This document shows positions 4,296 to 44,037 of a stretch of 64,000 nucleotides of DNA, in pieces (within the stretch, counting starts at the first letter, position 1; each line of letters begins with the position of its first letter). The position numbers and the translations under genes are program-made. The notes below the pieces were generated by a model that saw only the letters and a program-made list of their open reading frames with translations, had not been told where the DNA came from and did no database searches. Location of the stretch: the NCBI GenBank assembly GCA_030059665.1, contig JANVYR010000001.1:640001-704000 (forward strand), written 5' to 3'. Origin of the DNA: Candidatus Calditenuis fumarioli. GTDB lineage: Archaea > Thermoproteota > Nitrososphaeria_A > Caldarchaeales > Calditenuaceae.

Positions 4296-4643
4296 TCAGT
4301 GTCCGCATCCGCATGAGCAGCCGCCGTGGCCGTGGGAGTGTTCCTCGTGCGCTCCCAGCCGCCTCACGAGGAAGCCCTCGCCGAAGGGCGTGACGTCGTA
4401 GTCCAGCTCGACCTCGCCGATCCGCTCGGCGGAGAAGCTGTCGATGAAGAACTTCACGCCGTCGACGTTCACCACCCTATCGCCCTCGTACTCCCGGTCC
4501 TCCAGCGCCAACCCGTACTGGGGCCCGCAGCAGCAACCCTCCGTCACGAAGATCCTTATTCCCACCTCACCACCGACCTCTTTCAGAACCTCCCTCATCT
4601 TCTCCAGCGCCCTCTCGGTGACCCTGAGCTTCACGTCCTGCAT
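4296..4643 (-). CDS. HesB/IscA/SufA-type Fe-S cluster assembly accessory protein
   Basis: LRVTERA, EGCCCGPQYGL, VDGVKFFID, ELDY; start placed at ATG 4643. Confidence 0.85.
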   Translation of the reverse strand: MQDVKLRVTERALEKMREVLKEVGGEVGIRIFVTEGCCCGPQYGLALEDREYEGDRVVNVDGVKFFIDSFSAERIGEVELDYDVTPFGEGFLVRRLGAHEEHSHGHGGCSCGCGH

Positions 4644-4744
4644 CGCGTTCTGTTTCGCATGACCTTTAGAAAAACTTTCACCACCAACAACGGAGGTGCG
4701 GAGCTGACCAAGCACGCCGCGTCAGAAGGTCGGGCTTCGGCGGA

Positions 4745-4984
4745 TCAGGTGGAGGGGCTCATCACGAGCATCGTGAGGGTGGACCTGACCTTCTCCAGCC
4801 GACGGATGTTCCACGAGACGATCTCCTTCAGCTTCTCCATGTTCTCCGCCTCTACCTTGGCCACGATGTCGTAAACGCCGTAAACTGCATACGCCTCCTT
4901 GACCGCGGGCATCGACTGGAGCTGCTTCAGGACCTCCTCCTCCGCACCGATCTCCGTGTTTATCAGGACGAACGCGATCGGCAC
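4745..4984 (-). CDS. Lrp/AsnC ligand-binding (RAM) domain protein
   Basis: AFVLINTEIG...AYAVYGVYDIVAKVE...VRSTLT; start placed at GTG 4984. Confidence 0.88.
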   Translation of the reverse strand: MPIAFVLINTEIGAEEEVLKQLQSMPAVKEAYAVYGVYDIVAKVEAENMEKLKEIVSWNIRRLEKVRSTLTMLVMSPST

Positions 4985-5142
4985 GTCACCAGTGATACCG
5001 CGACTTCCTAAAAAGCTTTCATGAGGCGTCGGCGACCTGCCGAAGCCAGCGGCGTTGTCACCGATGGGCCGCTTCCACCCGGACCACCCCGGAGATAGCA
5101 TTATAATGGCAGGCGAATAGGGAGGAAATAGGTGGTTGCGGG

Positions 5143-5343
5143 ATGCCGAAGCACATCCTCGTGACCCTGACGGACGAGCAGTACCGGTGCCTCAGCTACC
5201 TCAAGGGCAAGATGGGGAGCAGCGACGCGGAGGTCCTCCGGAACGTCTTCCTCGCTTGGGTCTGGGAGAAGATGGGAGGTGCAGTCCTCGGCGAGTGCTG
5301 GACCGACGTCAAGAGGATGATCCCTGAGAAGGGCGACCAGTGA
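5143..5343 (+). CDS. Small ribbon-helix-helix-like DNA-binding protein
   Basis: 66 aa; N-terminal alternating strand KHILVTLT followed by two helices (DEQY.., SDAEVLR). Confidence 0.55.
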   Translation: MPKHILVTLTDEQYRCLSYLKGKMGSSDAEVLRNVFLAWVWEKMGGAVLGECWTDVKRMIPEKGDQ

Positions 5344-6802
5344 GCGATACCTGCGGGTCAGGAAACCCGGCGTAGATGGGATCGGGGTTCTTCCAGATCA
5401 GGTACTCCGGCGGGTTGAGGAGCGAGACGAGCGCCTTCGCGGCCCTCTCCGGGTCCAGCTTCCTCGAACCGGATCTCCTCCAGTAGTCTCCCACGGAGCT
5501 CAGGGCATTGAGGGCCCTCCTCCGCTTGCGACGGTTCAGGCTCTCGAACCAACGCCTGAAGAGCTCGCCGTCGAGCAGAATGCGTTCCGTGGCACCTAAC
5601 GACCTCAGCTCCTTGTACGCCCGATCGAGCCTCTCCATTCTCACGTCCGAGGGGCCAGACACCCTCACCATCCCAGCCCGCTCGAAGAACGGGTTGTACT
5701 TCGCCATCACGGCCAGCGTCTCGACGTAGGGTCTCCCCTCCAGCGGCATCGTATGCCTGACCAGCTCAACCGCCACGCCTATCCCCCTGAACTTCGGGTG
5801 GACTATGACACGCGATACCCGGACGAAGTGCTCGTTCAGCCATTTGAGGTAGCTCCGCATCCCGGATCTGATCAGCTCCCGAAGGAACGGCAGAGCTGCG
5901 TTGCGTGCGCGGAGGTTCGGATGCGGATAGGAGTAGACGATCACGCCCGCGAGCTCATCGCCGATCATCGCTCTGTAGACCGCCTTCACATGTCCTGGGT
6001 TCCTTCCACGGTAGTGAAACTCCGAGAGAGCCCTGTAATCTTCCGCTGAGCCCTTTTCTATTTTCAGAGAGCGCAATAAACTGCACCTCTCCGGCCTCGG
6101 CAGATCGTACCTCACCTCAGCGTTGGACCCGAACCGCTTGATCACGAGGACGTCAGGCCCCAAATCCTCGACCAGGTCGTCGTGGGCGGAGGCGGCCACC
6201 AAGGTCATCCCCCTCTTCCTGCACCACCTCTGCGTGAGGAAGGCGAGGACCCTCGCCGTGACGCGGTCGAGGTTCGAGCAGAACTCGTCTACGATCAGCG
6301 TCCTCGGTTTCAGGTCGAGGGCCTTCGCCACCCTGTAGCGGAACTTCTGGCCGTCGCTCAGCTCCCTGTACCTCCTGAGGAAGAGGTAGGCCTCTCCGAG
6401 CCCGACGAAGGACAGCAGCTCTATCGCCTCGGCCACGTCCCTTCCCACGCCCTCGATGACCCGCTCGTTCGGATCCACCTCCACCGAGTCCATGTTCAGC
6501 ACCGGTTTGAACTCCTCGTGCCTCTGCAGCTCCCTCTCGAGGTCTTTCAGGATCAGTGACTTCCCACCTCCGCTCTCGCCAGTGACGTAGACCACGTCGC
6601 CGGGATCCACGTCCAGCACCAGGTCCCGGTAGATCACGTGCTCCCTTCGGCCTATCCCGATCCCGAAAGCCCTGTGGACCTCCAGCACCCTCTTCGAGTA
6701 ACGCGCAGGCGAATCGAAGGTACGGCTCAGCCTGAACGACTTCCTCTCCTCCCTCTCCGGGACGATGACGTAATCCCTCAGCCTCAGCAGCAAGACGCTC
6801 AC
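5309..6802 (-). CDS. ABC-type ATPase fused to GNAT acetyltransferase (COG2401-like)
   Basis: Walker A GESGGGKS, signature LSDGQ, Walker B LIVDEF, H-loop SAHDD; GNAT motif SRVIVHPKFRGIG and NPFFERAGM. Confidence 0.85.
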   Translation of the reverse strand: MSVLLLRLRDYVIVPEREERKSFRLSRTFDSPARYSKRVLEVHRAFGIGIGRREHVIYRDLVLDVDPGDVVYVTGESGGGKSLILKDLERELQRHEEFKPVLNMDSVEVDPNERVIEGVGRDVAEAIELLSFVGLGEAYLFLRRYRELSDGQKFRYRVAKALDLKPRTLIVDEFCSNLDRVTARVLAFLTQRWCRKRGMTLVAASAHDDLVEDLGPDVLVIKRFGSNAEVRYDLPRPERCSLLRSLKIEKGSAEDYRALSEFHYRGRNPGHVKAVYRAMIGDELAGVIVYSYPHPNLRARNAALPFLRELIRSGMRSYLKWLNEHFVRVSRVIVHPKFRGIGVAVELVRHTMPLEGRPYVETLAVMAKYNPFFERAGMVRVSGPSDVRMERLDRAYKELRSLGATERILLDGELFRRWFESLNRRKRRRALNALSSVGDYWRRSGSRKLDPERAAKALVSLLNPPEYLIWKNPDPIYAGFPDPQVSLTGRPSQGSSS

Positions 6803-8121
6803 CCGATCGCCGCAGCGAAGCTCCCGGTGGAGTCGACGGTGGAGGCGTAGCAGGCCAAGGCAAGGGCCCTGGCGAGGTCGTCACGCGTGCCGTGGGGGTG
6901 ATGGAAGACGAGCCGGCCCCTCCTCGTCCTCTCGAACTTCACCGCCTGCAGCGAGGAGATCAGGGCGTCATCGAGGTAGATCCTGAGCCTGCCGCCCTCC
7001 ATCAACACCTTCGTGGCGATCATGGCCCTCTCCACCTCATCGGGCCCCACGCCTATGACCCGTATCCCGTACGACTCCAGCTGCTCCCTGATCGGTATCC
7101 CCGCTCCTATCTCCTCCAGGGCTAGGTCGAAACCCATCTGCCGGTAGAGGTTCACGACCCTGCCGACGGAGTAGGTGTAGCTCTCGCTCATCCAGAGCTC
7201 GGTGTGGACGAGCCTCAGTGTTCCGCCGTCAGCCTCAACGACCGCCAGCGCGTTCGGGTCAGCCCTCCCTCCCCAGTCGAACCCAGCGTAGAGCCTCCCG
7301 CGGCCGACCTCGCCGGGCTGATAGTCCTCGATGCAGGACCTGATCAGCTCGGATGGGAAGAAGCTGCTGGCGTCGTCGACGAACTCCGCGAGCATCTCCC
7401 TCCTGAAGGCCTCCTCGCCCATCAGCCTCCTCTGCTCCTCGATGAAGGACGGTCTGATCAGAGGACATGCGGTCGCGGGCCACCTCTTCACGCTCCACCC
7501 GGGATCGGTGAAGCACCGGTAGAAGACGTGGTTTCTGTCCCAAGGTGTGCTCACCATCCAGAAGTGGCCGTCGGTGGTTGCGATCTGGGGCATCAGGACG
7601 TCGGTTATCACCGGCTCCGGAACGAACGCCGCCTCGTCGACGATCACGAGGTCCGCGGTGAGGCCCCTGATGGTGCTACCCAGCGTCCCCGACGGAAGCG
7701 CTACTATCCGGCTGCCGTTCCTGAAGGAGATCTCGCTCCTCCTCTTCGCACGCAAGAGCTTCAGGCAGGTTTCGGAGCCCCTGACGAACTCCGAGATCTT
7801 CTCCAGGAGGTTAAGGCTCTGTCTCAGCGTCGGCGCCACCAGCAGCACCCTCGCCCCTTTCCTCGAGAGGGCCAGGTGGAGCGCCTTCACGGCGACCGTC
7901 GTCGACTTCCCGGTCTGCCTGGCGGCGCACACGCAGATCCTCTTGCTCGGATCCGATAGCAGCTCCTCCTGGTAGGCGAAGGGCCTCCAGTTCAGGACCG
8001 AGACTGCGAACTCCACCGCGTCCTCCGGTACCCTAGTCGCCGCGGCCTCCCTCTCCCTTCTCAGCTCGACGAGCCTCCGGTAGAGCGCCTGACCTCCCCG
8101 AAGAGGGACCGAACCCCTCAA
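6799..8121 (-). CDS. Terminase large subunit (TerL)
   Basis: Walker A AARQTGKST, IRGLTADLVIVDEAAF, coupling motif VSTPW, RNase H-like domain YAGFDWG...D and C-terminal RDDLARALALA. Confidence 0.9.
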   Translation of the reverse strand: MRGSVPLRGGQALYRRLVELRREREAAATRVPEDAVEFAVSVLNWRPFAYQEELLSDPSKRICVCAARQTGKSTTVAVKALHLALSRKGARVLLVAPTLRQSLNLLEKISEFVRGSETCLKLLRAKRRSEISFRNGSRIVALPSGTLGSTIRGLTADLVIVDEAAFVPEPVITDVLMPQIATTDGHFWMVSTPWDRNHVFYRCFTDPGWSVKRWPATACPLIRPSFIEEQRRLMGEEAFRREMLAEFVDDASSFFPSELIRSCIEDYQPGEVGRGRLYAGFDWGGRADPNALAVVEADGGTLRLVHTELWMSESYTYSVGRVVNLYRQMGFDLALEEIGAGIPIREQLESYGIRVIGVGPDEVERAMIATKVLMEGGRLRIYLDDALISSLQAVKFERTRRGRLVFHHPHGTRDDLARALALACYASTVDSTGSFAAAIG

Positions 8122-8456
8122 GATCCCTCACCGCCCTTCGCCAGCTCCTCCGCGAGCGCCCTGAGCTCGGCCACCTCCCTCTCCCGCCTGATCCGGCTGA
8201 GGAGCTCCAGTCCCTTGAGCGATATGCCGAGGTAGGCCTGGGAGGCCCTCTGGTCGTTGCGACGCCTCGCCTCGAGCGACTGCTGGTAAGCGTCCCTCAC
8301 CACCTTCCAGACCTCCTCCTCCAGCTCGTCCCACTCCTCCCCGGAAGCGGTCCTCTCGGCCCTCCTCTGGAGCCTCCTCAGACCCTCGCTTACCCTGAGG
8401 ATCCTCCGCTCGAGGCGCCTCACGCCTTCCATCCCATCAGATTTCGTAGACCTCAC
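8118..8456 (-). CDS. Helical protein, candidate terminase small subunit (start may be 8432)
   Basis: Charged, all-helical ~105-112 aa; stop overlaps TerL start (TTGA). Confidence 0.5.
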   Translation of the reverse strand: MRSTKSDGMEGVRRLERRILRVSEGLRRLQRRAERTASGEEWDELEEEVWKVVRDAYQQSLEARRRNDQRASQAYLGISLKGLELLSRIRREREVAELRALAEELAKGGEGS

Positions 8457-8787
8457 CCCCGAACCACCGCTGGATCTGGGCGTAGTTCCTCACCTCCTTC
8501 TTCGGAACGTTCATCACGCCGCGCTCTATCGAGTCGATGAGGACAAGGGGGATGTACGTGATGTCGCTGTTCTCCGGCTTCCGTTCGACCACCAGCCTCA
8601 GGTAGACGAGTCTCTCGCCTCTGACGAGTCCGCCGTATGCTCCCATCGAGACGATCGGGCTGTCCACCTTCTTCGGGTTCCTCATGTTGTTCGGAACGTC
8701 CCTCCAGGTGCAGGCATCATACCACCTGACCATTATCAGCTCCCCTTCTCTCAGAGAGCTCAGGACCTGTCTCAGCTTCCTGCGCAT
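8437..8787 (-). CDS. Hypothetical virus-like protein (IMVRWYDA motif, beta-rich)
   Basis: 116-aa ORF heading the terminase operon; host-like codon use. Confidence 0.55.
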   Translation of the reverse strand: MRRKLRQVLSSLREGELIMVRWYDACTWRDVPNNMRNPKKVDSPIVSMGAYGGLVRGERLVYLRLVVERKPENSDITYIPLVLIDSIERGVMNVPKKEVRNYAQIQRWFGGEVYEI

Positions 8788-8915
8788 CGTCTACAGTCAA
8801 AGCACACGATAGAATTACAGTGTTGCGATTCTTGCAGGGAGTGATGCCTCAATTGATGACACATTTCTGCCTTTAATGCGAGAGCAGATACGGCTGCGCC
8901 TCCGATGATCGGGCG

Positions 8916-9248
8916 ATGTACGGCTCGGTTGAGGAGGTGAAGGTCCGTTTGGGGATGGACGTGAACGACCCGACCCACGACAGGACGATCGTCTCCTTCA
9001 TAGAGGAAGCTGACGCCCTGATCGATGCGGTGCTTGAGGCCAACGGGATAAGGACGCCGCTCGAGGATCCGCCGGGGAGGGTGAGGAAGCTCTCCTCGAC
9101 GATAGCGTCGCTCCTCTTTGTGGCCTGGAGGTCTCAGCGGAGGGACGACGTGGTCACCTACCTGAGATCGGTCAGGGAGGAGCTGAGGGCATTCGCGGAG
9201 GACCTCAGGTCGAGGGCGGGCATAGAGCTGACGGGTGAGACGGATTGA
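8916..9248 (+). CDS. Head-tail connector/adaptor-like protein
   Basis: YGSVEEVKVRLG...FIEEADALID pattern typical of gp6/gp15/gp36-type adaptors; 110 aa. Confidence 0.7.
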   Translation: MYGSVEEVKVRLGMDVNDPTHDRTIVSFIEEADALIDAVLEANGIRTPLEDPPGRVRKLSSTIASLLFVAWRSQRRDDVVTYLRSVREELRAFAEDLRSRAGIELTGETD

Positions 9249-9469
9249 GGCGCGAGGGCAAGCTCACCGTCAGGCGTTCCGGAAGGGTGACCTCGATCAG
9301 GATAGACGTGGAGGACTGGCTAGGGCTGCTGGCTCTGCTGCTGGCCGCCTCCTTCGTCGCTCTGCTCCTGTCGGGGAGGACGCTGGAGGCCACCCTCGTC
9401 GGGACCTTCGGCGGCGGCCTCTCGCTGGGCGAGATGGTCAGGAGGGCCAGGAGGTCTGGAAGGGGATGA
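9245..9469 (+). CDS. Small two-TM membrane protein
   Basis: Hydrophobic WLGLLALLLAASFVALLL and second helix; TTGA overlap with upstream gene. Confidence 0.55.
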   Translation: MRREGKLTVRRSGRVTSIRIDVEDWLGLLALLLAASFVALLLSGRTLEATLVGTFGGGLSLGEMVRRARRSGRG

Positions 9470-9669
9470 GGTGCAGGAGCGTGTGCGAGGGGATCGAGGG
9501 CTCCTCGAGGCGTGCGAGGTACAGGCTCGGTTATTACTGGTGCAGCGAGTGCTCTATCGCGCTCCACAGGAGCTCCTGCGAGCTCAGGAACGGTGCGGTC
9601 GTCTGCCCGTGCTGCGGCAACCGGGTCAGAACCACCCCGAGGACCAGGCGAGGGTGGAAAGCATGGTGA
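9466..9669 (+). CDS. Small Cys-rich zinc-finger protein (67 aa)
   Basis: MRCRSVC...WCSEC...CPCCG; ATG at 9466 overlaps upstream stop (ATGA). Confidence 0.6.
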   Translation: MRCRSVCEGIEGSSRRARYRLGYYWCSECSIALHRSSCELRNGAVVCPCCGNRVRTTPRTRRGWKAW

Positions 9670-9947
9670 CCGTCTCGCTCGAGCTGGCATCGTCGCTTTA
9701 CGGAGCGCTCTACGCGTCCGTCTTCGCCGGCGCCGGCTACCTCAAGTCGAGGAAAAGGGAGGAATTCTCGCTGAGGAAATTCCTCGAGACCGTACTGTTG
9801 GGAGCGCTGATAGGCGCGATGGCCGGAGGCGCGGGCCTCGACGTCAAGGACATGGACCTTCTGGATCTCTTCGCGGTGGGAGGCGCGTCCACGCTGACCC
9901 GTGACCTCCTGAAGTCCGTTCTCGCGTCGGCAGGTGGGCGGAGATGA
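9663..9947 (+). CDS. Small membrane protein, holin-like (94 aa)
   Basis: Two to three hydrophobic helices with a basic loop YLKSRKREEFSLRKF and basic C-terminus; coupled to neighbours. Confidence 0.55.
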   Translation: MVTVSLELASSLYGALYASVFAGAGYLKSRKREEFSLRKFLETVLLGALIGAMAGGAGLDVKDMDLLDLFAVGGASTLTRDLLKSVLASAGGRR

Positions 9948-10522
9948 GGGGAGCGGCGGTCCTTTTCCTCTCGGTCCTCGCGGTCACGGCCTTCCTCCTC
10001 GCCTTCACGCTCGCGGTCCCCGAGGTGACCCTCACCGCAACGCCTCCCTCCAGATACGTCAGCGTCCCAGGTCTGGGAGAAATTCCGGCCGAGGTTGGGG
10101 AGCAGAGGGTGACACTGAGGTTCAGGGCACCGGAGTCGGTGCTGGCCTTTGGGGTTGCGGTTGCGCTCACGATGGGCGCCGCTTACGCAGCGTACTCCGA
10201 GAGGGACCTGCTGTTGAGGAAGGCCATCGCCACGGCAGGCATCCTGTACGGACTCGGGATCGGCCTGCTCGCGCACTCCAGAAAGGACTTCAGGGTCGCG
10301 GCTCCAGTCTTGCTGCCGGTGGGCTTCGCGGTTCTCGGCCTCTCGGTCGCCCTGAGGTGGATGCTCAGCCGGCGAGTCAGGACGGCTCCTCGACGGAGAC
10401 GCGCACAGTCATCGAGAGGACCACGGCCCTCTTCCCCTGGTCGGCGAGGTCTAGCCTCCTCAGCTCCACGGGGGAGGCGTCCACGAAGGCGTCCCTTATC
10501 CCCAGCGTGGGGTCGTCCCTGA
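9944..10522 (+). CDS. Four-TM membrane protein; last ~45 codons overlap the opposite-strand gene
   Basis: Four hydrophobic segments up to ~10380; ATGA overlap with upstream gene. Confidence 0.55.
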   Translation: MRGAAVLFLSVLAVTAFLLAFTLAVPEVTLTATPPSRYVSVPGLGEIPAEVGEQRVTLRFRAPESVLAFGVAVALTMGAAYAAYSERDLLLRKAIATAGILYGLGIGLLAHSRKDFRVAAPVLLPVGFAVLGLSVALRWMLSRRVRTAPRRRRAQSSRGPRPSSPGRRGLASSAPRGRRPRRRPLSPAWGRP

Positions 10523-10820
10523 TCATCCGGTACGCCCTCAGCGCTGCCTTCAACACCTTCCCGTACTGCTCCAGGTGGTCCGCACCGACGCCCTCGAAGA
10601 CGAGCTCGTACTCGTGGACCGATCTGGTCGCGGTCCCTCCGATCGACCTCCTCGAGACCTCAACGGCCCTGAGGAGAACGTAAGCCCTCGGAAAAACTGG
10701 GACGGAGCTCGACCTCAAAACGGCCGCGATCAGACCCTCCTCCCTCAGCCTCTCCAGCAGCGAGTTCAGCGCGCCCTCAACCTCCTCGACCATCATGGGC
10801 GACGTCACCTCTCCCTCCAC
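10377..10820 (-). CDS. Tail terminator/completion-like protein (tentative)
   Basis: ~140 aa alpha/beta with PRAYV, YELVFE, DDPTLG and terminal strand AVVLSMTVRV resembling tail-completion proteins. Confidence 0.45.
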   Translation of the reverse strand: MEGEVTSPMMVEEVEGALNSLLERLREEGLIAAVLRSSSVPVFPRAYVLLRAVEVSRRSIGGTATRSVHEYELVFEGVGADHLEQYGKVLKAALRAYRMIRDDPTLGIRDAFVDASPVELRRLDLADQGKRAVVLSMTVRVSVEEPS

Positions 10821-10975
10821 CTCGAGAGGTGGCTCTCACGCGAGATCATGTCCCTGACGGCCATCCGTATGGCCTCGGAGACGCTGACGTAGAGGCCGGA
10901 GCGGACCAGCTCCTCGAGCGATTCGAGGTACGGTTCCGGTAGCCTGATGGTGAGGGCACGGAGACGGCCGCTCAT
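10805..10975 (-). CDS. CopG/RHH transcriptional regulator
   Basis: TIRLPEPYLESLEELVRSGLYVSVSEAIRMAVRD; paralogous to 27413-27574. Confidence 0.85.
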   Translation of the reverse strand: MSGRLRALTIRLPEPYLESLEELVRSGLYVSVSEAIRMAVRDMISRESHLSRWRER

Positions 10976-11118
10976 CGTCCGGCCCTCGTTCGCGGAGCCG
11001 TATAAGCGGAGAGGCCAGGGGTTAGGTGAAGCTGAAAGTGGAAACCGCGCCGTTGAGCCCAGGCCCGTCACGTTCCGGGCAAGGTAGATAACAACGTCGT
11101 CGCCCTGAGCGTCGAGGG

Positions 11119-12054
11119 TTGTCCGGGACGAGGCACTTCCTAGAGGTGTACGACCTGAGCAGGGAGGAGTTCTTGGAGGTGATCAGGACAGCACATCGCT
11201 TCAAGCGCTTCGGCTACCCGTCGGACTCCCTGAAGGGAAGGTTCATCGCGCTCCTCTTCGAGAAGCCCTCCACCAGGACCAGGGTATCCTTCACATCAGC
11301 GATCTCGAGGCTCGGAGGCGTCTTCGATTACCTGTCGTCGAGCGAGCTCCAGCTTGCCCGCGGCGAACCTGTGTACGACGTCGGCCGGGTCCTCTCACGC
11401 TACGTCCACGGCCTCGTCTGCAGGGTGAGGAGGCACACGGATCTGGTCGAGCTGGCCGAGAACTCGCGCGTCCCGGTGGTCAACGCGCTCTCCGACCGGC
11501 ACCATCCGTGTCAGGCTCTGGCCGACATGCTAACGGTTTACGAGCTGAAGGGGAGGTTCGAGGGCGTGAAGGTGGCCTTCGTCGGCGACGGGAACAACGT
11601 GGCCACCTCGCTGATGCAGGCGTGCGTTTTGGCCGGTGCGGACTTCTCCATCGCCTCACCCGTGGGATACTGGGTGCCGGAGGAGGAGAGGCGGAAGGCC
11701 GAGAGGGTAGCAGCTGAGACCGGTGCCAAGCTCACGTTCACCGATGACCCGGTTGAGGCGGTGAGGGGCGCTGACTTCGTCTACACCGACGTCTTCGTCT
11801 CGATGGGCTTCGAGGCCGAGGCGCAGGAGAGGCTGAGGGCCTTCATCCCCAGGTACAGGGTGACCGAGGAGCTGATGTCCAAGGCGTCGCCCGATGCGAG
11901 GTTCATGCACTGCATGCCTGTGAAGAGGGGGGAGGAGGTGGAGGCGTCCGTTGCTGATGGCCCGAGATCGGTGATGTACGATCAGGCCGAGAACAGGATG
12001 CATACCGAGGCGGCCCTCCTCCACCTGATCTACTCCGTTTGGCGGTGGATCTGA
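11119..12054 (+). CDS. argF: Ornithine carbamoyltransferase
   Basis: FEKPSTRTR, HPCQALAD, YTDVFVSMG, HCMP, QAENR. Confidence 0.95.
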   Translation: MSGTRHFLEVYDLSREEFLEVIRTAHRFKRFGYPSDSLKGRFIALLFEKPSTRTRVSFTSAISRLGGVFDYLSSSELQLARGEPVYDVGRVLSRYVHGLVCRVRRHTDLVELAENSRVPVVNALSDRHHPCQALADMLTVYELKGRFEGVKVAFVGDGNNVATSLMQACVLAGADFSIASPVGYWVPEEERRKAERVAAETGAKLTFTDDPVEAVRGADFVYTDVFVSMGFEAEAQERLRAFIPRYRVTEELMSKASPDARFMHCMPVKRGEEVEASVADGPRSVMYDQAENRMHTEAALLHLIYSVWRWI

Positions 12055-13916: not shown

Positions 13917-14102
13917 TCACCTTCTCCTCCTCGGGACGGTCGTCGGAAGGATCACGTCGTCGCTCCAGCTCTGCTGGAAGAGGTCGCAGAGGTAGACCAG
14001 CGCCTCGCAGAAGCTGACCGGCCTGCCCGTCACCTCCTCGAGCTTCGCCTTCACCCTGACTAGCCTGGCGTACGTCTCGTCTGAGACCCTGATCTGCGTC
14101 AT
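13917..14102 (-). CDS. Small VapB/RHH-like DNA-binding protein
   Basis: MTQIRVSDETYARLVRVK...VSFCEAL. Confidence 0.6.
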   Translation of the reverse strand: MTQIRVSDETYARLVRVKAKLEEVTGRPVSFCEALVYLCDLFQQSWSDDVILPTTVPRRRR

Positions 14103-37993: not shown

Positions 37994-38020
37994 TATAAAG
38001 GAGTTCGTAGAAATTCTACG
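37994..38020 (+). promoter_or_regulatory. TATA-like TATAAA followed by palindrome CGTAGAA-A-TTCTACG
   Basis: TATAAA at 37994-37999; perfect 7-bp inverted repeat 38006-38020. Confidence 0.35.
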
Positions 38021-38257
38021 TGGGATCTTAATGCCTGATGCGCTCTCATACTTACTGACGCTCCTTTGAGGGCGGTTGACGGAAGAGATAAGCCATCATC
38101 TGCGCCTTCCACGTCCTGAAGTCCCTCTTCCTTCCTCACCCGGTAAACACTTCTAAGATTGGTCAGAGACCCGACCATTTCCTGCTCTTTGGGTGCGGCG
38201 GGCGCCTCATCGGCCTCTCCGATCGGCTCCATATGACCCTGTAACCGTAGAAACCCC

Positions 38258-38380
38258 TCATCCGGTCTGCTGAGCCTCCATCAACTTTTCAAGGACGGGT
38301 ATTGCCTGAGCCTCCCCTTCCTGAACCAAAACCTCCTTCATGAGCTTGGACACTAACTCACATTCCTTATGAACCCGCAT
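38258..38380 (-). CDS. Possible 40-aa helical peptide divergent from the IS110-like gene
   Basis: MRVHKECELVSKLMKEVLVQEGEAQAIPVLEKLMEAQQTG*; amphipathic, no known motif. Confidence 0.25.
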   Translation of the reverse strand: MRVHKECELVSKLMKEVLVQEGEAQAIPVLEKLMEAQQTG

Positions 38381-39404
38381 TGCGATGTGAGATGATAGGA
38401 ATGATCGGAGAAGCAAACCAAGAACGTCTCGATTCTAAGCTGAGAGAGAAGGCCCTCGAGCTGTATAGAAGGCTTGAGGGCCTTCCGTTGCCGAAGTTCC
38501 AAGGAGCGACGGTGGACTTCCACCAGAAGAGGCCAGCGATGGTTTTCATAGCGGAGAAGGAGCTGATAGCTCAAGTCGAGAACGGAGAACTCCTGAGGTT
38601 CCTCGTCGCGCAGGGCGTCCGCCGCGTGCTGGTGGATGCCCTATGGCCGAGCAACGTAGCCATCCTCAAGCAGCTAATCGAAAGCGGGATCGAGGTCTGG
38701 GTCCTAACCAGACCGTCGGCCCTTCACGGCTGGCGGAAAAACACGAGGGTAAGCCAAAGGGCCTCGTGGAGTGGTTAGAAAGACATCATCCGAAGGTTCT
38801 GGAGGGCTTCAAGCAAAGGATAAAGAAGGATGAATTCGATGCGGTTCTGTTGAGATATGTGAAGCCGAAATTTATGAGGCCTCTCTCGAAAGAGCATCTG
38901 ACGTGCTGGGTAAAGATGCTGTTATATCGGTATGCCAGAAGGAATCGTCAGGGACTGCTCCATCAGCTCGATGCTCTACCGGTGTCAGAAGATGAAAGGA
39001 CGTGGAGGATCGAGATGTCAGAAGATTATTTGATGATAGAGGCACAGAGCTTCATTGAAACCGTAAAGCGTTGCTATCCGGGGATAGATGAACTGTTCGA
39101 GGAACTCGGTATCTCAGACGACGTTATCGCTCAGGCATATGCGTGCGAAGTGTTCTTAGAGGTGGACGAGAGACGATCACCCTACCGGGAGAGAAATCAC
39201 TTCGGATTGAAGTGGGACGATGACGCCGAGCTTCTGAGGGACGGAGCAGCACTGTATGCATTGAATCAGTTGACGGCTAAGATAGAAGGAGTGAACCCGA
39301 AATTCGCGAAGAAAGGCTTCCGGAAGAAGGAGTGGATAGTCCTAACGAAAATCCATGATTTCAAAAGGCGATTGCTGATAGGGCCAGGCCGGACGCGGGC
39401 CTGA
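38380..39404 (+). CDS. IS110-family-like recombinase/transposase split by a -1 frameshift near 38736-38742 (programmed shift, pseudogene or sequence error); start may be 38401
   Basis: DEDD-type RuvC motifs VDFHQK, VLVDA, LIESGIEVWVLTRP, IKKDEFDAVLL; coiled coil; YPGI..ELGISDDVIA..EV and FGL of the Tnp/Nop-like domain. Confidence 0.7.
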
Positions 39405-39560
39405 GGCCGGGCGCCTCGGCGGGGGAGACCCGGGCACGGGTACTCGCGCAGGCTCTAACCGCCCCCGCCGTGAGGCGGTGAGGCGTAACCTCCTCGAATG
39501 TAACACCGGCCCGGGCCCCAAACGACCGAGGTCGAGGACGCCCTGGGCGACGAATCAAAC
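39405..39560 (+). ncRNA. Candidate structured RNA (bridge/guide-like) downstream of the IS110-like gene
   Basis: Stems 39412-39425/39462-39477, 39428-39432/39437-39441, 39491-39497/39532-39538, 39539-39542/39546-39549; followed by pyrimidine/T tract. Confidence 0.4.
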
Positions 39561-39570
39561 GATCCAAACC

Positions 39571-39592
39571 CCTCCCCTTTCCTTTTTTCTTT
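39571..39592 (+). terminator. Pyrimidine/oligo-T tract, archaeal terminator-like
   Basis: CCTCCCCTTTCCTTTTTTCTTT. Confidence 0.4.
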
Positions 39593-39714
39593 GTCGCATT
39601 AACCTCAGCACGTCCTTTTCACCTTGTTATGGCTTAATTCACAGGCTTCTCCCGGCTCCTGAGCCCATCCTCTGGCTTTGCGTTGGCGCTTCTCGTGTTT
39701 TGAAGGCGGCTCTT

Positions 39715-39855
39715 TATGAAGAGAAGATAGATACAGCGATATCCGTATTCAAGTCGATGTTCGGAGAAGAAGTGCTATCCAGTAAGCCGAAATGGATGAA
39801 GGTAGAGATGGTCCAGAAGGCATTCATATACAACCTGTTGCTGAACGCGGTGTGA
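39715..39855 (+). pseudogene. C-terminal fragment of an IS5/IS4-type DDE transposase
   Basis: YEEKIDTAISVFKSMFGE...KVEM..KAFIYN resembles the YREK region and C-terminus of IS5-like transposases; no N-terminal part. Confidence 0.6.
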
Positions 39856-39989
39856 ACCCGAGACGAAGGAGCTCCAGCGGGAGAAGAGGGCATAGAGCCT
39901 AGGGAATTAGGCCACAAGGCATTGAGCTAAACAACTTTCACTCATCTCACCCTCATAGGGATTTATATATTCTCCTAAGCGCCAAAACT

Positions 39990-42173
39990 TCATTCGAGGA
40001 CCTGGACCACGTCATGCACGACGATCACCGTCCTGCCGTCCTGCTTCAGGATCCTAGCCTTGGCCAAAAATCGCCTGCCCTTCTTCACCAGCTCCCTAGG
40101 TCCGTAGTAGAGGTCCGCGTCGAGCCTCGCCCTGAAGCGGTCGTTCACCAGCACCACGGCGTAACCCGGACCGACCTTCTCCACCTCGACCTTCACGAGC
40201 GCTCCCGACTCGCTGGAGGCCCTGAGCGAGGACCTGGTGACGAACCTCCCGTTCACCTGGGCGACCTTCCGCTCCCTGACGAGCCTGAAGGCGGCACGTC
40301 TCACCACGTCCGGGTCCTCGTCAACGCTCTCCATCACCTCGGTCAGCGTCATCCCCCTACGCCCGCTCTTCAGCAGCGCGAGGTAGACGTCCTTCCTGGT
40401 CCTCTCGACGGCTCGCCTGAGCTCCTTTGCGGACCTGAAGGCCTCCGAGCCCAGATCTGTGCGCTCCTCATCCCCCCGCGGCCCCTCAGCACGCACTGTC
40501 TCCGGAGCGAGGACCGACCTCTCCGGCCGCCTCCACGGCCACGGCTCCCCTGGTGTTGGCATCGGGCCAGAGCGCGGAACCAGCACCTCCCTGACCTCCC
40601 TCGAGACCTCCTCGAGGATCGAGGCCATCCTTCTGGCCCTCCTGTAACCCTCCCGGAAGTAGTACTCCTCGACGGTACCCTCCGTGACCAGTATCAGCAC
40701 CTTTCCCGGCATCCTCCTGCCGGTCCGCCCCCTCCGCTGGACGTGCCTGATGCCGCTGGGTATTGGCTCGTAGAACACCACCAGCCCGCACTCGGGGACG
40801 TCTAACCCCTCCTCTCCTATCGAGGTCGCCACGAGGACCCTCGTCCTTCCCTCCCTGAAGTCCCTGAGGACCCTCATCTGCTCCTCCTGCGTCATCCTAG
40901 GCCCTCCCTTCCCCTCGGCCTTGCCGACGAAGAGCGCCGCATCGATCCCCTCGGACCTCAGCCGCTCCGCGAGGACCTCCGCCGTGACCCTCACGTTGGA
41001 GAAGACCAGGACCCTGTCCTGCGGCCTCTCCGCGAGGTGCGCCCTCACGGCCGATACCAGCGCGGTGACCTTGGGATGGTCTGCCGTGCAACCCTCCGCT
41101 GCCCTCAACAGCTCCGCGAAGTCCTCGCTCCGGACTATCGAGACGTGGCTCCTCAGCTCAGACCCCTTGAGGGACTCGAGGTAGCTGAGGAGCGTCCGGA
41201 CGTGCTGGCTCTCCACCAGCTCCAGGGCGTGGAAGAGGCTCAGCACCTGCGATATGACCTGAAGGAACCTCATCCTCGGACCCCTCGCGCCGGCCTCTGC
41301 CTCCGCCTTCAGCCGCTCCATCAGCGATAGCAGGACCTTCCGGTTCACCTCCACCTCCGCACCGATCAGCCCCGCTGACCTGAGGGCCTCTACGCGCCTC
41401 TCGATCGCCTTCCTTATCACGTCCCGGACCCGTTCGTACTCCGGGGTCAGCTGGACCCTCACCCATCCTACCTTGACGCCCGGGATGTAGGGTCTTACGT
41501 CCTCGTCGTCCTCAGTCCTCCACTCTATCCTCTCGATCCAGAGGTTGCGCACGACCTCGGTGACCGACTCCTTCGTGGAACCCGGAGAAGCGGTGAGCGC
41601 GAGGATCAGGGGCCACGGGCACCTCCTGACGTACTCGGAGGCGATACGGGTGTAGGCGTACCTCGCCTTCGAGCGGTGACACTCGTCCAGGACGAGGAGC
41701 GCGAACTCCTCGAGCGCCACCAGGCCGTTGCTCATGTCGTTCCACACGGCCTGAGGTGTACCGAGCACGACCCTCACCCTCCTGTCGATCCAAATCCCCT
41801 CCCTTCCCCTGACCTCGCCCGTGACGACGGCGACCTCCTCTCGGCCCAGCTTGAGGTGCCTCAGCAGGCTCTCCCGGTGCTGGAGCGCCAGCGGCTTGGT
41901 CGGTGCGAGGAACATGACCCTGCACCCCGGATACCTGCGGAGGACCTCCGCGATCACGAGCTCCGCGATCACCGTCTTTCCCAGCGCCGTCGGCAGGACC
42001 AGGAGCGTGTTGGCCTTCAGCGCGCCCTCGGCCATCTCGAGCTGGTACCTCCTCCCTTCGACGGCCCTCTCCCTAACCATCGGGTGCTCGACGTAGCCCT
42101 CTTCGCTGACCCGGAACGCCCTCGCTTGACCTCCGGCCGTCTCGCCCCCGACGTAATCCCTTAGGTCGACCAC
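39990..42173 (-). CDS. Hef/FANCM-like DEAH helicase without ERCC4 nuclease domain
   Basis: RRYQ, LPTALGKT, VLDECHR, LTASPGS, VATSIGEEGLD, QRRGRTGR; C-terminus is wHTH-like plus beta-barrel. Confidence 0.88.
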   Translation of the reverse strand: MVDLRDYVGGETAGGQARAFRVSEEGYVEHPMVRERAVEGRRYQLEMAEGALKANTLLVLPTALGKTVIAELVIAEVLRRYPGCRVMFLAPTKPLALQHRESLLRHLKLGREEVAVVTGEVRGREGIWIDRRVRVVLGTPQAVWNDMSNGLVALEEFALLVLDECHRSKARYAYTRIASEYVRRCPWPLILALTASPGSTKESVTEVVRNLWIERIEWRTEDDEDVRPYIPGVKVGWVRVQLTPEYERVRDVIRKAIERRVEALRSAGLIGAEVEVNRKVLLSLMERLKAEAEAGARGPRMRFLQVISQVLSLFHALELVESQHVRTLLSYLESLKGSELRSHVSIVRSEDFAELLRAAEGCTADHPKVTALVSAVRAHLAERPQDRVLVFSNVRVTAEVLAERLRSEGIDAALFVGKAEGKGGPRMTQEEQMRVLRDFREGRTRVLVATSIGEEGLDVPECGLVVFYEPIPSGIRHVQRRGRTGRRMPGKVLILVTEGTVEEYYFREGYRRARRMASILEEVSREVREVLVPRSGPMPTPGEPWPWRRPERSVLAPETVRAEGPRGDEERTDLGSEAFRSAKELRRAVERTRKDVYLALLKSGRRGMTLTEVMESVDEDPDVVRRAAFRLVRERKVAQVNGRFVTRSSLRASSESGALVKVEVEKVGPGYAVVLVNDRFRARLDADLYYGPRELVKKGRRFLAKARILKQDGRTVIVVHDVVQVLE

Positions 42174-42423
42174 CGTCCCTACCTCGAACGACGAGGTGAT
42201 AATCGTGCGGTCGGTCCGCTTTCGGTGGAGTCTATGAGGGGATGCGGTTCGACCATAAAGGAATGGCTACTTGTTAAAACAGGAGGAAGGGCCTGGGCAA
42301 CGCGATAATAAATAATCCGTAAAGGCCGAGTGTGGCGGCATGACTTTGACGGGAATGGTATCAATAGGGGGGCGATAAAAATTAATACTATCGTTAAACC
42401 GCACTTGTTATGTTGGGAAGCCC

Positions 42424-43509
42424 ATGATTACGGAGCTGACCATCAGGAATTTCAAATCGATACAAGAGGTCACGCTTGAATGTAAAAAGATAAACATTTT
42501 CATCGGAGAGCCCAATACAGGAAAATCTAACTTGTTGGAGGTGTTTGCTCTGCTGAATCTATTCGGGAGAGATGAAACCCGTTACCCTCTCACAACAGAT
42601 GATTTGCGGTTCATCTTTAGGGTGTCTTCGTGGCGCCAACTATTCTATTGGCAGGATACCAGTCGGGAATTATCAATAAGTTTGCTGTTATCAAACGGGG
42701 GTACGAATAATTCGTACGACCTGAAATTCAGATATGAGGAAGGCAATATAAGCGTTGCCGTTAGTGAAACACAACAAGGAATTGCAGAGACCTCCCCATT
42801 ATCCTACTCTTATACTCTCAGGGCCGATGACCTTCACCCTCTCTCAGAAATTGAATACAACAGACCATCTTTTAGTGAGTTGCAGAAGCTCGCCTTTTAT
42901 CGTTATCGTGTTAGAGATGATTACAAAATTCTGGAGAGTCGATTTGTTGTTCCTCCTGACGCTCCTAACCTAGTAAGTCTACTCCTAGAGAATAAGGAGT
43001 TGAGAAGTGAGGTCGTTCGCCTGATCAATAAGTACGGATACAGGTTGATGATAGAACCTCCTACTAAAACCCTTAAAATCGAGCGCGGTATTGATGAGGA
43101 CTCATTTATAGTGATTTCGCTCCCCTACTCGGCGGTATCCGACACACTACAGCGAATGGTCTTCAACCTCGCCATCGTCACGTGTAACAGAGACATGGTA
43201 ATCGCTATGGAGGAACCAGAGGCGCATGTATTCCCATACTACGTCAAGTATCTGGCTGAGAAGATCGCTGAGGACGAGCAGGGCAATCAGTTCTTTATCA
43301 CGACGCACAACCCGTATTTCCTGCTATCCGTTCTAGAAAAGGGCCGCACGGACGACGTTAACGTTTTCGTTACGCACTATGAGAACTTCGAGACCAAGGT
43401 AATGCAATTGTCCGATGAGCATAAGGAGGAGTTGCTCGATTATGGTGCGGATGCCTTCTTCAACCTAGATGCCATTATGGAGAAGTTGGGTGTAGTGGCC
43501 GGTGGTTAA
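42424..43509 (+). CDS. ABC/SMC-like AAA ATPase (AAA_15/AAA_21 type), low GC
   Basis: IRNFKSI, GEPNTGKSN, MEEPEAH, FITTHNPY. Confidence 0.9.
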   Translation: MITELTIRNFKSIQEVTLECKKINIFIGEPNTGKSNLLEVFALLNLFGRDETRYPLTTDDLRFIFRVSSWRQLFYWQDTSRELSISLLLSNGGTNNSYDLKFRYEEGNISVAVSETQQGIAETSPLSYSYTLRADDLHPLSEIEYNRPSFSELQKLAFYRYRVRDDYKILESRFVVPPDAPNLVSLLLENKELRSEVVRLINKYGYRLMIEPPTKTLKIERGIDEDSFIVISLPYSAVSDTLQRMVFNLAIVTCNRDMVIAMEEPEAHVFPYYVKYLAEKIAEDEQGNQFFITTHNPYFLLSVLEKGRTDDVNVFVTHYENFETKVMQLSDEHKEELLDYGADAFFNLDAIMEKLGVVAGG

Positions 43510-43953
43510 GTGTTGTTCAGCAAATACGTAGTTGAATGTGACAACGACAAAACTTTGGTTCAGGAACTCTTGAACATTAGATCAGGACGGATACACCATG
43601 CCCTTGGCAAAACGAATGTGTTGAAGGTCCTCCAAAAATCTGAAAACTCGCTTGGGTTGATAGATGAGGATCCAGAAAGTCACCAGCCCCCTATGCTACG
43701 TAGCATTCAAGTAAATTACATAGGTAATGGGATAAAGGTGGGTCAATTTAGGAGCAACAAATTGGTGATCTTGTGTCCGGAGCTCGAGGAATGGGTCGTT
43801 AGAGCCATCGAAGAAATTGCAAATCTAAATCCGAAGATTGATGCAAAGACCTTAAAATATAACCCCGAGATGTTTAGGAAGAGTCTTGGACGGCTCATCC
43901 AGTTAAATTCTAGTTATATTATTACACTCCGAAACGTGATGACAACAACCTAA
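43510..43953 (+). CDS. TOPRIM-like partner protein, low GC
   Basis: YVVECDND (E after strand 1), GK.NV, GLIDEDP (DxD), ELEEW; starts immediately after the ATPase stop. Confidence 0.6.
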   Translation: MLFSKYVVECDNDKTLVQELLNIRSGRIHHALGKTNVLKVLQKSENSLGLIDEDPESHQPPMLRSIQVNYIGNGIKVGQFRSNKLVILCPELEEWVVRAIEEIANLNPKIDAKTLKYNPEMFRKSLGRLIQLNSSYIITLRNVMTTT

Positions 43954-44037
43954 TGCTGCCCGATTGTCTCGGGTAGCGAGGGCGGTGTCCTGACCAAACA
44001 ATAACGCTATATTTCGCCACTGAGTTGAACTGTTGGC

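Follow-up and report, generated by a model that had tools for sequence, protein, structure and literature searches.

A headless packaging cassette in Candidatus Calditenuis fumarioli is probably part of an old, domesticated tailed virus resembling a gene transfer agent

Why should an archaeal chromosome keep the DNA-packaging enzyme of a tailed virus when no capsid gene stands beside it? The question is raised by a cassette in the 64-kb stretch of the Candidatus Calditenuis fumarioli genome analysed here (the window, to which coordinates refer unless a contig is named). Open reading frame (ORF) analysis finds 12 intact, tightly packed genes at 5143-11071, among them the gene of a large terminase subunit (TerL), with host genes on both sides. 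Below, G000 denotes this genome (3 contigs, 91% complete; C2 is one of its contigs), G001-G006 six congeners (genus g1), and g2, g3, and g4 sister genera in the family Calditenuaceae. A model that saw only the letters of the window (the sequence-only reading) had proposed a long-resident, capsid-less module whose remaining genes may lie elsewhere in the genome, or else a satellite or relic. Based on the comparisons reported below, the cassette probably belongs to an old tailed-virus gene set that is vertically inherited, lacks an integrase, is spread over three loci, and has been domesticated in the manner of a gene transfer agent (GTA), the function being deduced rather than observed; in G000 this set is headless.

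The minus-strand packaging operon encodes, in this order, a 116-aa protein, a 112-aa protein, TerL, and an ABC-type ATPase fused to a GNAT-like domain (ABC/GNAT), with overlaps of 4 to 20 nt. The divergent plus-strand operon encodes an adaptor-like protein followed by 74-aa membrane, 67-aa zinc-ribbon, 93-aa membrane, and 192-aa membrane proteins. A ribbon-helix-helix (RHH) gene, RHH88, and then the 147-aa tail terminator gene lie on the minus strand, convergent to the latter operon, and a second RHH gene, RHH66, stands at the opposite end of the cassette. The earlier description of intact, overlapping ORFs in two divergent operons with a terminator-like gene, bracketed by RHH genes, is thus borne out. 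So is its statement of what is missing: the cassette holds no portal, capsid, or integrase gene, no tRNA gene was found within 20 kb of it, and no att-like repeat was found flanking it. Host-like composition, likewise suspected by eye, is confirmed by GC content at third codon positions (GC3), which is 0.83-0.92 in cassette genes vs about 0.8-0.91 in most neighbouring host genes; the value of 0.76 for the 93-aa membrane gene was measured only within a longer 158-aa ORF.

The identity of TerL is beyond doubt. Its profile matches T4 gp17 (3ezk, full length, 3e-19, aligned over positions 38-424), P74-26 TerL (4zni, 2e-19), and the nuclease-domain structures 5tge and 5m1f (1e-16) in the PDB. Walker A (GKS/T), Walker B (D162-E163), a TPW motif, and the nuclease residues Asp282 and Asp415 are invariant across 7 orthologues. 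The N-terminal part is an ASCE (additional strand, catalytic glutamate) ATPase according to PF03237, which scores above its cut-off, the two Walker motifs, and the 4zni alignment; the C-terminal part is a predicted RNase-H-like nuclease according to the structure matches and D282/D415. The terminases of thermophilic phages (P74-26, G20c/P23-45; 4zni, 5tge, 5m1f) and T4 gp17 (3ezk) share the two-domain architecture, the Walker motifs, and the aspartates of the nuclease, with profile E-values from 2e-19 to 2e-16. At 440 aa, however, the TerL of the window falls short of T4 gp17 (577-592 residues in solved chains), and its similarity to phage terminases is remote. A reading as a TmcA/NAT10 helicase was rejected: the score is 35 against an NCBIfam cut-off of 700 bits and covers the P-loop region only, as generic ATPase similarity does.

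Regarding the neck, the AlphaFold model of the 147-aa protein has a gpU-type alpha/beta tail-terminator fold. Foldseek matches this model to lambda gpU (3fzb, E 3e-6), the P74-26 neck (9oab), HFTV1 (9fkb, template modelling score 0.62), and T5 p142, as well as to one chain of 6tba, the virion entry of the Rhodobacter capsulatus GTA (RcGTA; E 5e-4). There are 56 PDB matches at E<=1e-3, and the best 50 of the 56 are mostly tail-terminator, neck, or cap proteins.

The whole cassette is conserved, in the same order and beside the ornithine carbamoyltransferase (OTC) gene, in all six congeners, with identities of 40-95% (tblastn, 20-kb stretches). TerL itself is present in each of these species-level genomes at 62-83% identity and at the same place, and its ratio of nonsynonymous to synonymous substitution rates (dN/dS) is 0.11-0.17. 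No cassette gene of the congeners has an internal stop; one apparent stop is an earlier natural end. In close pairs (dS 0.2-0.6) dN/dS of cassette genes is 0.06-0.30, compared with 0.09-0.11 for OTC (0.07-0.11 over all pairs). Between sub-clades dS reaches 0.6-1.5, which is near saturation, yet the 12 genes are open in all seven species. Maximum-likelihood trees of the concatenated cassette and of OTC, taken as the host gene, share one topology, with the cassette evolving about 2.5 times faster. Synteny in 6/6 congeners, dN/dS, and the congruent tree support the claim of a long-resident, host-ameliorated module, and they contradict the idea of a strain-specific cassette in neutral decay.

The missing partners of the cassette lie elsewhere in the chromosomes of the congeners. 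Profiles built from sister-genus proteins find portal, capsid, and tail-tube genes in 6/6 congeners and give 0 matches on G000. Scaffold, gp10-like, and tape-measure genes accompany them at this second locus, again in all six. According to the maps of G005 and G003, it encodes RHH59, HK97-type capsid (329 aa), scaffold, a 352-aa head protein, and portal in one half, and RHH64, tube, chaperone, gp10-like protein, and tape measure (532 aa) in the divergent half. Four congeners have the capsid gene at full length, and in the other two it is truncated where the contig ends. All 9 genes of the locus are open in the four congeners examined. Purifying selection is strong, with dN/dS of 0.08-0.10 for capsid, 0.08-0.12 for portal, 0.07-0.14 for scaffold, and about 0.2 for tube. 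The capsid assignment is based on NF042927 (9e-7, sub-threshold), phrog_267/544, and an ESM Atlas similarity of 0.98 to Phage_capsid_4 clusters, while its profile has no match among PDB sequences; the portal assignment is based on PF04860 (1.6e-6, sub-threshold), phrog_9232 (1e-8), and PDB 9i8c (1.6e-3).

The third locus (hub, fibre, and a small chaperone-like protein) is found in 4/6 congeners. In G001, G004, and G000 it lies near the same CBS-domain and membrane-protein genes, which border it directly in G000, whereas two genes intervene in the other two genomes. In G000 it is intact (C2:228377-231968, L032 3377-6968, minus strand, behind Hel308), with a hub of 636 aa, a fibre of 378 aa, and a 201-aa gene. 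A tRNA-Pro(GGG) gene lies 1.5 kb from this hub locus (L032 8492-8589). GC3 of the G000 hub/fibre set is 0.61-0.78, below the genome norm, and the hub is equally close to other genera (53%) and to congeners (48-52%), which suggests that the presumed receptor-binding end evolves fast or was replaced. In the mapped congeners each locus has a contig of its own, where host genes flank it over about 5-10 kb or more; flank genes were called host by homology to G000 genes. The loci recovered from sister species show no disruption, and purifying selection acts on them as strongly as on neighbouring host genes. Thus, the expectation of dispersed remaining genes proved right for the congeners (locus 2 in 6/6, locus 3 in 4/6).

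For G000 the same expectation holds only in part, because a single 6.4-kb deletion has taken away the genes of capsid, portal, scaffold, and tail tube. The host genes that flank locus 2 in G005 and G003 stand at the same place in G000, where an RHH59 remnant abuts the last 342 tape-measure codons (C2:216424-217584). In the nucleotide alignment to the G005 locus (L035), position 7952 joins 14374 with a 14-nt overlap at C2:216555-216568. The missing 6.4 kb held the genes of capsid, scaffold, the 352-aa protein, portal, tube, chaperone, and gp10-like protein and the first ~187 tape-measure codons. Searches of G000 with PF05065, PF04860, phrog_12, and phrog_267 also found no capsid or portal gene. 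The label "capsid-less" is therefore right for G000 and wrong for the six congeners, which have head genes at locus 2. In the sequencing runs searched at the junction, all sampled words of this stretch are present in runs of at least four studies, and contigs of four metagenome runs from four studies bridge it with no differences or loose ends. Three of these runs may be the source of the G000 assembly, and one is not flagged so. G000 contains no N runs.

Since the orphan tape-measure fragment is still open (342 codons) with dN/dS of 0.22 and no rate excess (lineage-specific changes 25:25), the deletion looks recent. Unique changes in G000 amount to 102:89 for the whole cassette, which is not accelerated, and to 53:67 for the TerL operon, which shows no relaxation; terminal branch lengths are alike. 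An old deletion followed by relaxation is rejected on these grounds for the cassette as a whole, though not for the genes from adaptor to RHH88. With capsid, portal, scaffold, and tail-tube genes deleted, the cassette of G000 can no longer serve in a functional particle system.

Relatives of the element occur in the sister genera. In both g4 and g2 the TerL module continues directly into a siphovirus tail module. In g4 (L017, L020) the adaptor gene is followed by those of a membrane protein, the terminator homologue, the tail tube (PF18906 3e-22), and a small chaperone-like protein, then HK97 gp10-like protein (PF04883 3e-8), tape measure, hub, and fibre. The g4 head module, consisting of portal (phrog_9232 1e-8), a 350-aa protein, scaffold, and capsid (phrog_267 6e-6), is about 9 kb away behind host genes including that of the DNA polymerase II large subunit. 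In g2 all modules lie within about 17 kb beside a tRNA-Pro gene. tRNA genes are typical integration targets; the g2 element begins 170 nt after the tRNA-Pro(CGG) gene (L015 8775-8850). A contiguous, related provirus-like region of at least 20 kb is observed in 4/8 genomes of g3 (L074/L022; G014:C9, about 66-87 kb). It holds ParB-like, portal, ABC/GNAT (46-49% identical to the window's), tube, tape-measure, hub, and fibre genes, and its TerL is only about 30% identical.

As for free viruses, a single-sequence TerL query in IMG/VR returned nothing, and an alignment-based query found two uncultivated hot-spring virus contigs, L037 (IMGVR_UViG_3300025067_000009) and L038 (IMGVR_UViG_3300005858_000003). 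Their TerL proteins are 42% identical to the window's and 56-58% to that of g2. L037 resembles the element in having 116-like, terminator, ABC/GNAT, tube, chaperone, gp10-like, tape-measure, and hub genes in one block, and L038 resembles the cassette in its 116-like protein, TerL, homologue of the 192-aa membrane protein (TM192), and terminator. Both differ in lower GC (47-51%), contiguity, and the absence of host-gene context, and they carry additional ORFs of autonomous-virus type (large ATPase/helicase-size, methyltransferase-like, and phosphoesterase-like). G000 has five CRISPR arrays with 78 repeats in all, one of them at C2:240782-241870. The first 23 nt of the spacer at C2:241315-241359 match L037 exactly at 14001-14023, the junction of tape-measure end and hub start, with diverged homology over the rest of the spacer; to the element in its own host the spacer has no match. 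Such viruses therefore meet this host lineage. The CBS gene, Cdc6-like genes, and the DNA polymerase II large subunit gene form a neighbourhood common to g1 and g4, which suggests that the integration predates the genera.

Taken together, these data agree far better with a GTA-like domesticated virus than with the readings as decaying relic, satellite, or hidden provirus, because a full virion and packaging set is combined with the absence of integrase, att, and replication genes, with three loci that are not packageable as a unit, with host-congruent descent, and with purifying selection. A complete chromosomal set of head, tail, and packaging genes, as a GTA requires, is present in G001, where no gene at the three loci has internal stops, and absent from G000. 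Encoding the set takes roughly 17 kb, summed over the three loci. Means of self-propagation are missing, as integrase, att, and replication genes were seen at none of them. In this scenario the cassette would be the DNA-packaging module (116-aa and 112-aa proteins, TerL, and ABC/GNAT) of a siphovirus-type archaeal tailed virus, together with its head-to-tail joining apparatus (adaptor-like protein, tail terminator, and small membrane and zinc proteins). The virus would have become fixed in the chromosome of the ancestor of genus g1 and inherited vertically since, with its genes split into the OTC-side cassette, the head, tube, and tape-measure locus, and the locus of hub, fibre, and small chaperone-like protein. 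In the sister species it would most likely serve to build virus-like particles that do not replicate and into which the terminase packs DNA, presumably that of the host. The single deletion at locus 2 of G000 would then have orphaned the cassette recently, with no decay so far.

Several observations weigh against this explanation or narrow it. The term GTA-like is one that we infer from gene content, dispersal, and selection, and the selection could reflect another particle-based role, e.g., killing or superinfection exclusion. Within the genus, identities of hub and fibre reach only 31-52%, and GC3 of their genes is lower. The hub was not found in two incomplete congener metagenome-assembled genomes (MAGs), and in G006 it carries six stops (3 TGA and 3 TAG, G006:C24:14375-16015), being either a pseudogene or poorly assembled; completeness of the gene set is clear only for G001. 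In G000 the genes from adaptor to RHH88 have an unpredicted, roughly twofold excess of lineage-specific amino-acid changes (49:22 vs G005, p=0.002; 45:25 vs G002). Finally, TerL identities of 42% between g1 and g2, 30% between g1 and g4, and 56-58% between g2 and the IMG/VR contigs speak against simple vertical descent throughout the family. Vertical descent is established at the genus level only, and above it modules were probably exchanged with free viruses or acquired separately. A stronger proposition is that the three loci of the sister species are a working archaeal GTA, the first with a defined gene set and one from Thermoproteota rather than methanogens, with G000 as a natural headless mutant; it is conceivable, but we hold it only tentatively and with some doubt. 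To our knowledge, the genes of the voltae transfer agent (VTA) have never been tied firmly to its particles.

Among the alternatives, the one that survives best is a domesticated packaging cassette that works independently of capsids, in which TerL and ABC/GNAT, perhaps with the small proteins, serve a cellular DNA transaction without a virion. The 12 intact genes that G000 retains without capsid, portal, or tube gene and the unaccelerated TerL operon agree with it. Six congeners, however, have the cassette along with intact head and tube genes, on which selection is just as strong, and adaptor-like and terminator proteins make sense only in a virion. Moreover, because the deletion looks recent, intactness in G000 need not reflect selection, and we regard this alternative as unlikely. 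A neutral relic, i.e., undecayed leftovers of a defective provirus without function in any species, would account for the lack of integrase and replication genes, the breakage of the loci by rearrangements, the loss of 6.4 kb in G000, and the six stops in the G006 hub. It appears quite improbable given that the genes remain open at dS of 0.6-1.5 with dN/dS of 0.06-0.30, that capsid and portal are, at about 0.1, as constrained as host genes, and that the cassette tree is congruent with the host gene.

A satellite was another option of the sequence-only reading. It would resemble phage-inducible chromosomal islands (PICI) or their capsid-forming variants (cf-PICI), with its own terminase and neck proteins and with capsids or tails taken from a helper virus of the same lineage. 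The combination of terminase, adaptor, and terminator without capsid in G000 looks like such an element, and the spacer match to L037 indicates that related free viruses circulate. It fits poorly all the same and is very improbable: integrase, att repeats, a tRNA target, and a replication or primase gene are absent, the cassette stays at one chromosomal position in seven species and its tree agrees with that of the host gene, and the sister species own capsid genes. We give almost no credence to an ordinary complete, excisable provirus of which a gap or an error in the G000 assembly conceals the other half, as its three contigs and incompleteness might allow, since the cassette has host flanks within one contig and neither a tRNA gene within 20 kb nor flanking repeats nor an integrase ORF, the locus 2 junction lies within a contig and is bridged by the four runs without loose ends or N runs, and in the congeners no two loci share a contig and host sequence flanks them for 10 kb or more.

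Coordinates and assignment of the cassette genes and of the adjoining host genes are collected in Table 1.

Table 1. Genes of the cassette and its immediate host neighbours in the window
Feature	Position	Strand	Basis or remark
IscA-like (left host flank)	4296-4715		
AsnC-type regulator (left host flank)	4745-5101		
RHH66, small ribbon-helix-helix-like protein	5143-5343	+	assigned from sequence pattern only
ABC-type ATPase fused to GNAT-like acyltransferase domain, 497 aa	5309-6802	-	PF00005 1.9e-9; GNAT 6e-3
TerL, large terminase subunit, 440 aa, ATPase and predicted RNase-H-like nuclease	6799-8121	-	phrog_2 4e-45; PF03237 2.7e-15
112-aa Arg/Glu-rich protein, probably coiled-coil	8118-8456	-	conserved in 6/6 congeners
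116-aa protein, first gene of packaging operon	8437-8787	-	modelled small beta-barrel
Head-tail adaptor-like protein, 110 aa, first gene of divergent operon	8916-9248	+	PF07030 (Mu gp36) 1.4e-4
74-aa protein, one predicted transmembrane helix	9245-9469	+	hydropathy scan; conserved in 6/6 congeners
67-aa four-cysteine zinc-ribbon protein	9466-9669	+	CxxC...CxxC in translation; conserved in 6/6 congeners
93-aa glycine-rich membrane protein ("holin-like" earlier)	9666-9947	+	one or two hydrophobic segments (hydropathy scan)
192-aa polytopic membrane protein (TM192)	9944-10522	+	three hydrophobic segments (hydropathy scan)
Tail terminator protein, 147 aa	10377-10820	-	AlphaFold model, predicted local distance difference test (pLDDT) 84, predicted template modelling score 0.80
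RHH88, CopG-type ribbon-helix-helix protein	10805-11071	-	PF01402 3e-7; conserved in 6/6 congeners
OTC (right host flank)	11119-12054		

The ABC/GNAT gene, which is translationally coupled to TerL, encodes an N-terminal ABC ATPase (PF00005, residues 59-174) and a C-terminal GNAT-like domain, to which GNAT models match weakly at residues 256-377 (E 6e-3 and 0.014). The best PHROG matches are phrog_293 (3.6e-28), phrog_11143 (4e-26, residues 36-349), and phrog_886 (1.9e-25, residues 236-447). Its dN/dS within the genus is 0.16-0.25. The gene is present in 14/19 family genomes and adjoins TerL in g1 and g4 and the portal gene in g2; in L037 it lies inside the virus contig, between terminator and tube. 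PADLOC reported only generic ABC and helicase similarity in the cassette and assigned no defence system.

The label "TerS?" of the sequence-only reading, like its "holin-like", was a guess. The 116-aa protein has homologues in g4 (1e-6), g2, and L038; in sister genera and IMG/VR viruses their genes border TerL on its upstream side or lie close to that side. The dN/dS of the 116-aa protein is 0.06-0.13. Its model (pLDDT 68) has a Sm/Hfq/WYL/SH3-like fold with a best Z of 7.6 and BFVD matches at E>=4e-3, and the match is not specific: since only common small beta-barrels are matched, no assignment as small terminase subunit is possible. The 112-aa protein has no family match in Pfam or PHROG. 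It is a candidate part of the small terminase because of its relation to the C-terminal half of the 169-aa helix-turn-helix protein that precedes TerL in g4 (blastp 4e-5).

As for the plus-strand operon, all matches of the adaptor-like protein are below curated cut-offs (PF07030 22.5 bits vs a cut-off of 24.7; PF05135 15.3 bits, 0.026; phrog_195 1e-3), and its profile has no match among PDB sequences. In g4 the adaptor-like gene is separated from the terminator and tube genes by one small membrane-protein gene only. The zinc-ribbon protein has a weak zf-LITAF-like match (0.016), and a zinc-ribbon gene also adjoins the TM192 homologue in L038. The 93-aa membrane protein is conserved in 6/6 congeners with dN/dS of 0.09-0.27. 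TM192 has homologues in g2 (TM185) and L038. Its frame and the convergent terminator gene overlap by 146 nt (10377-10522), likewise in G005; the Arg/Pro-rich tail of TM192 may be antisense read-through rather than real coding, with an uncertain true 3' end.

A terminator homologue directly precedes the tail-tube gene in g4 (L017) and g2 (L015), and in genus g1 the tube gene is at another locus. RHH88 lies upstream of the terminator gene, and its true start is likely an internal Met near 10978. RHH66 has no match in Pfam or PHROG, and it is the best-conserved gene of the cassette, with 86-95% identity in 6/6 congeners and dN/dS of 0.00-0.16. It converges on ABC/GNAT and overlaps the 3' end of that gene by 35 nt; its membership in the element is uncertain. 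The four RHH genes that flank the modules are candidate regulators, and BLAST gives no support to their being paralogues of one family. The low-GC islands at 38000-40000 and 42000-44000 of the window (0.46-0.53 vs about 0.64 in the composition profile) have no relation to the cassette.

Among known systems, the closest in organisation is RcGTA, a GTA with a multi-locus "genome" (Hynes et al. 2016, PMC5026251). In both cases siphovirus-derived head, tail, and terminase genes lie in the chromosome at several loci, without integrase or replication genes, vertically inherited and under purifying selection. The present element differs in its archaeal host (Thermoproteota/Caldarchaeales) and has no sequence kinship with RcGTA beyond Caudoviricetes folds; it is known from genes alone, adds ABC/GNAT and the membrane and zinc proteins, and in G000 is without head genes. 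An archaeal GTA, the VTA of Methanococcus voltae, is cited in PMC5797428. Integrase-less provirus-derived elements have been described in Ca. Nitrosocaldus cavascurensis (Abby et al. 2018, PMC5797428) and, as far as that paper relates Krupovic et al. 2011, in Nitrososphaera viennensis (Nvie-Pro1); the authors speculated that the elements of these two thaumarchaea are GTA-like or killer particles (PMC5797428). By their description, they are similar in having TerL, portal, and HK97 capsid, in lacking integrase, att, and replication genes, and in being immobilised. They are, however, single contiguous loci in single genomes, whereas here three loci are involved, with descent and selection followed across seven species.

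Balbay et al. 2023 (PMC10547907) reported "prophage regions" in Caldarchaeales MAGs including Calditenuis fumarioli and read them as Mu-like with auxiliary metabolic genes. These regions contain terminase, capsid, portal, and tail genes along with Mcm, RNA 2',3'-cyclic phosphodiesterase, P-type Cu transporter, CopG, and aminotransferase, host-type genes of the kinds found here flanking or separating the loci. They are probably of the same kind as the present loci, and the description probably merges dispersed element loci with ordinary host genes. The three-locus organisation, its conservation, and the selection on it are reported in neither PMC5797428 nor PMC10547907.

So far, GTA-like status of integrase-less proviruses in Nitrososphaeria has been speculated from single genomes (PMC5797428). 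The present comparison adds one virus-derived set that is spread over three loci and has descended with its host through seven species. It also adds capsid and portal genes under constraint of the housekeeping level, related free viruses, and one clean natural deletion of the head genes. If the loci of the sister species do form a working GTA, the intact TerL and ABC/GNAT operon of G000 can serve to tell whether the packaging enzymes do a second, capsid-independent job. The GTA question can now be tested with hot-spring viromes and metatranscriptomes, and it is wrong to regard the "capsid-less terminase cassettes" of these archaea as orphan packaging machines.

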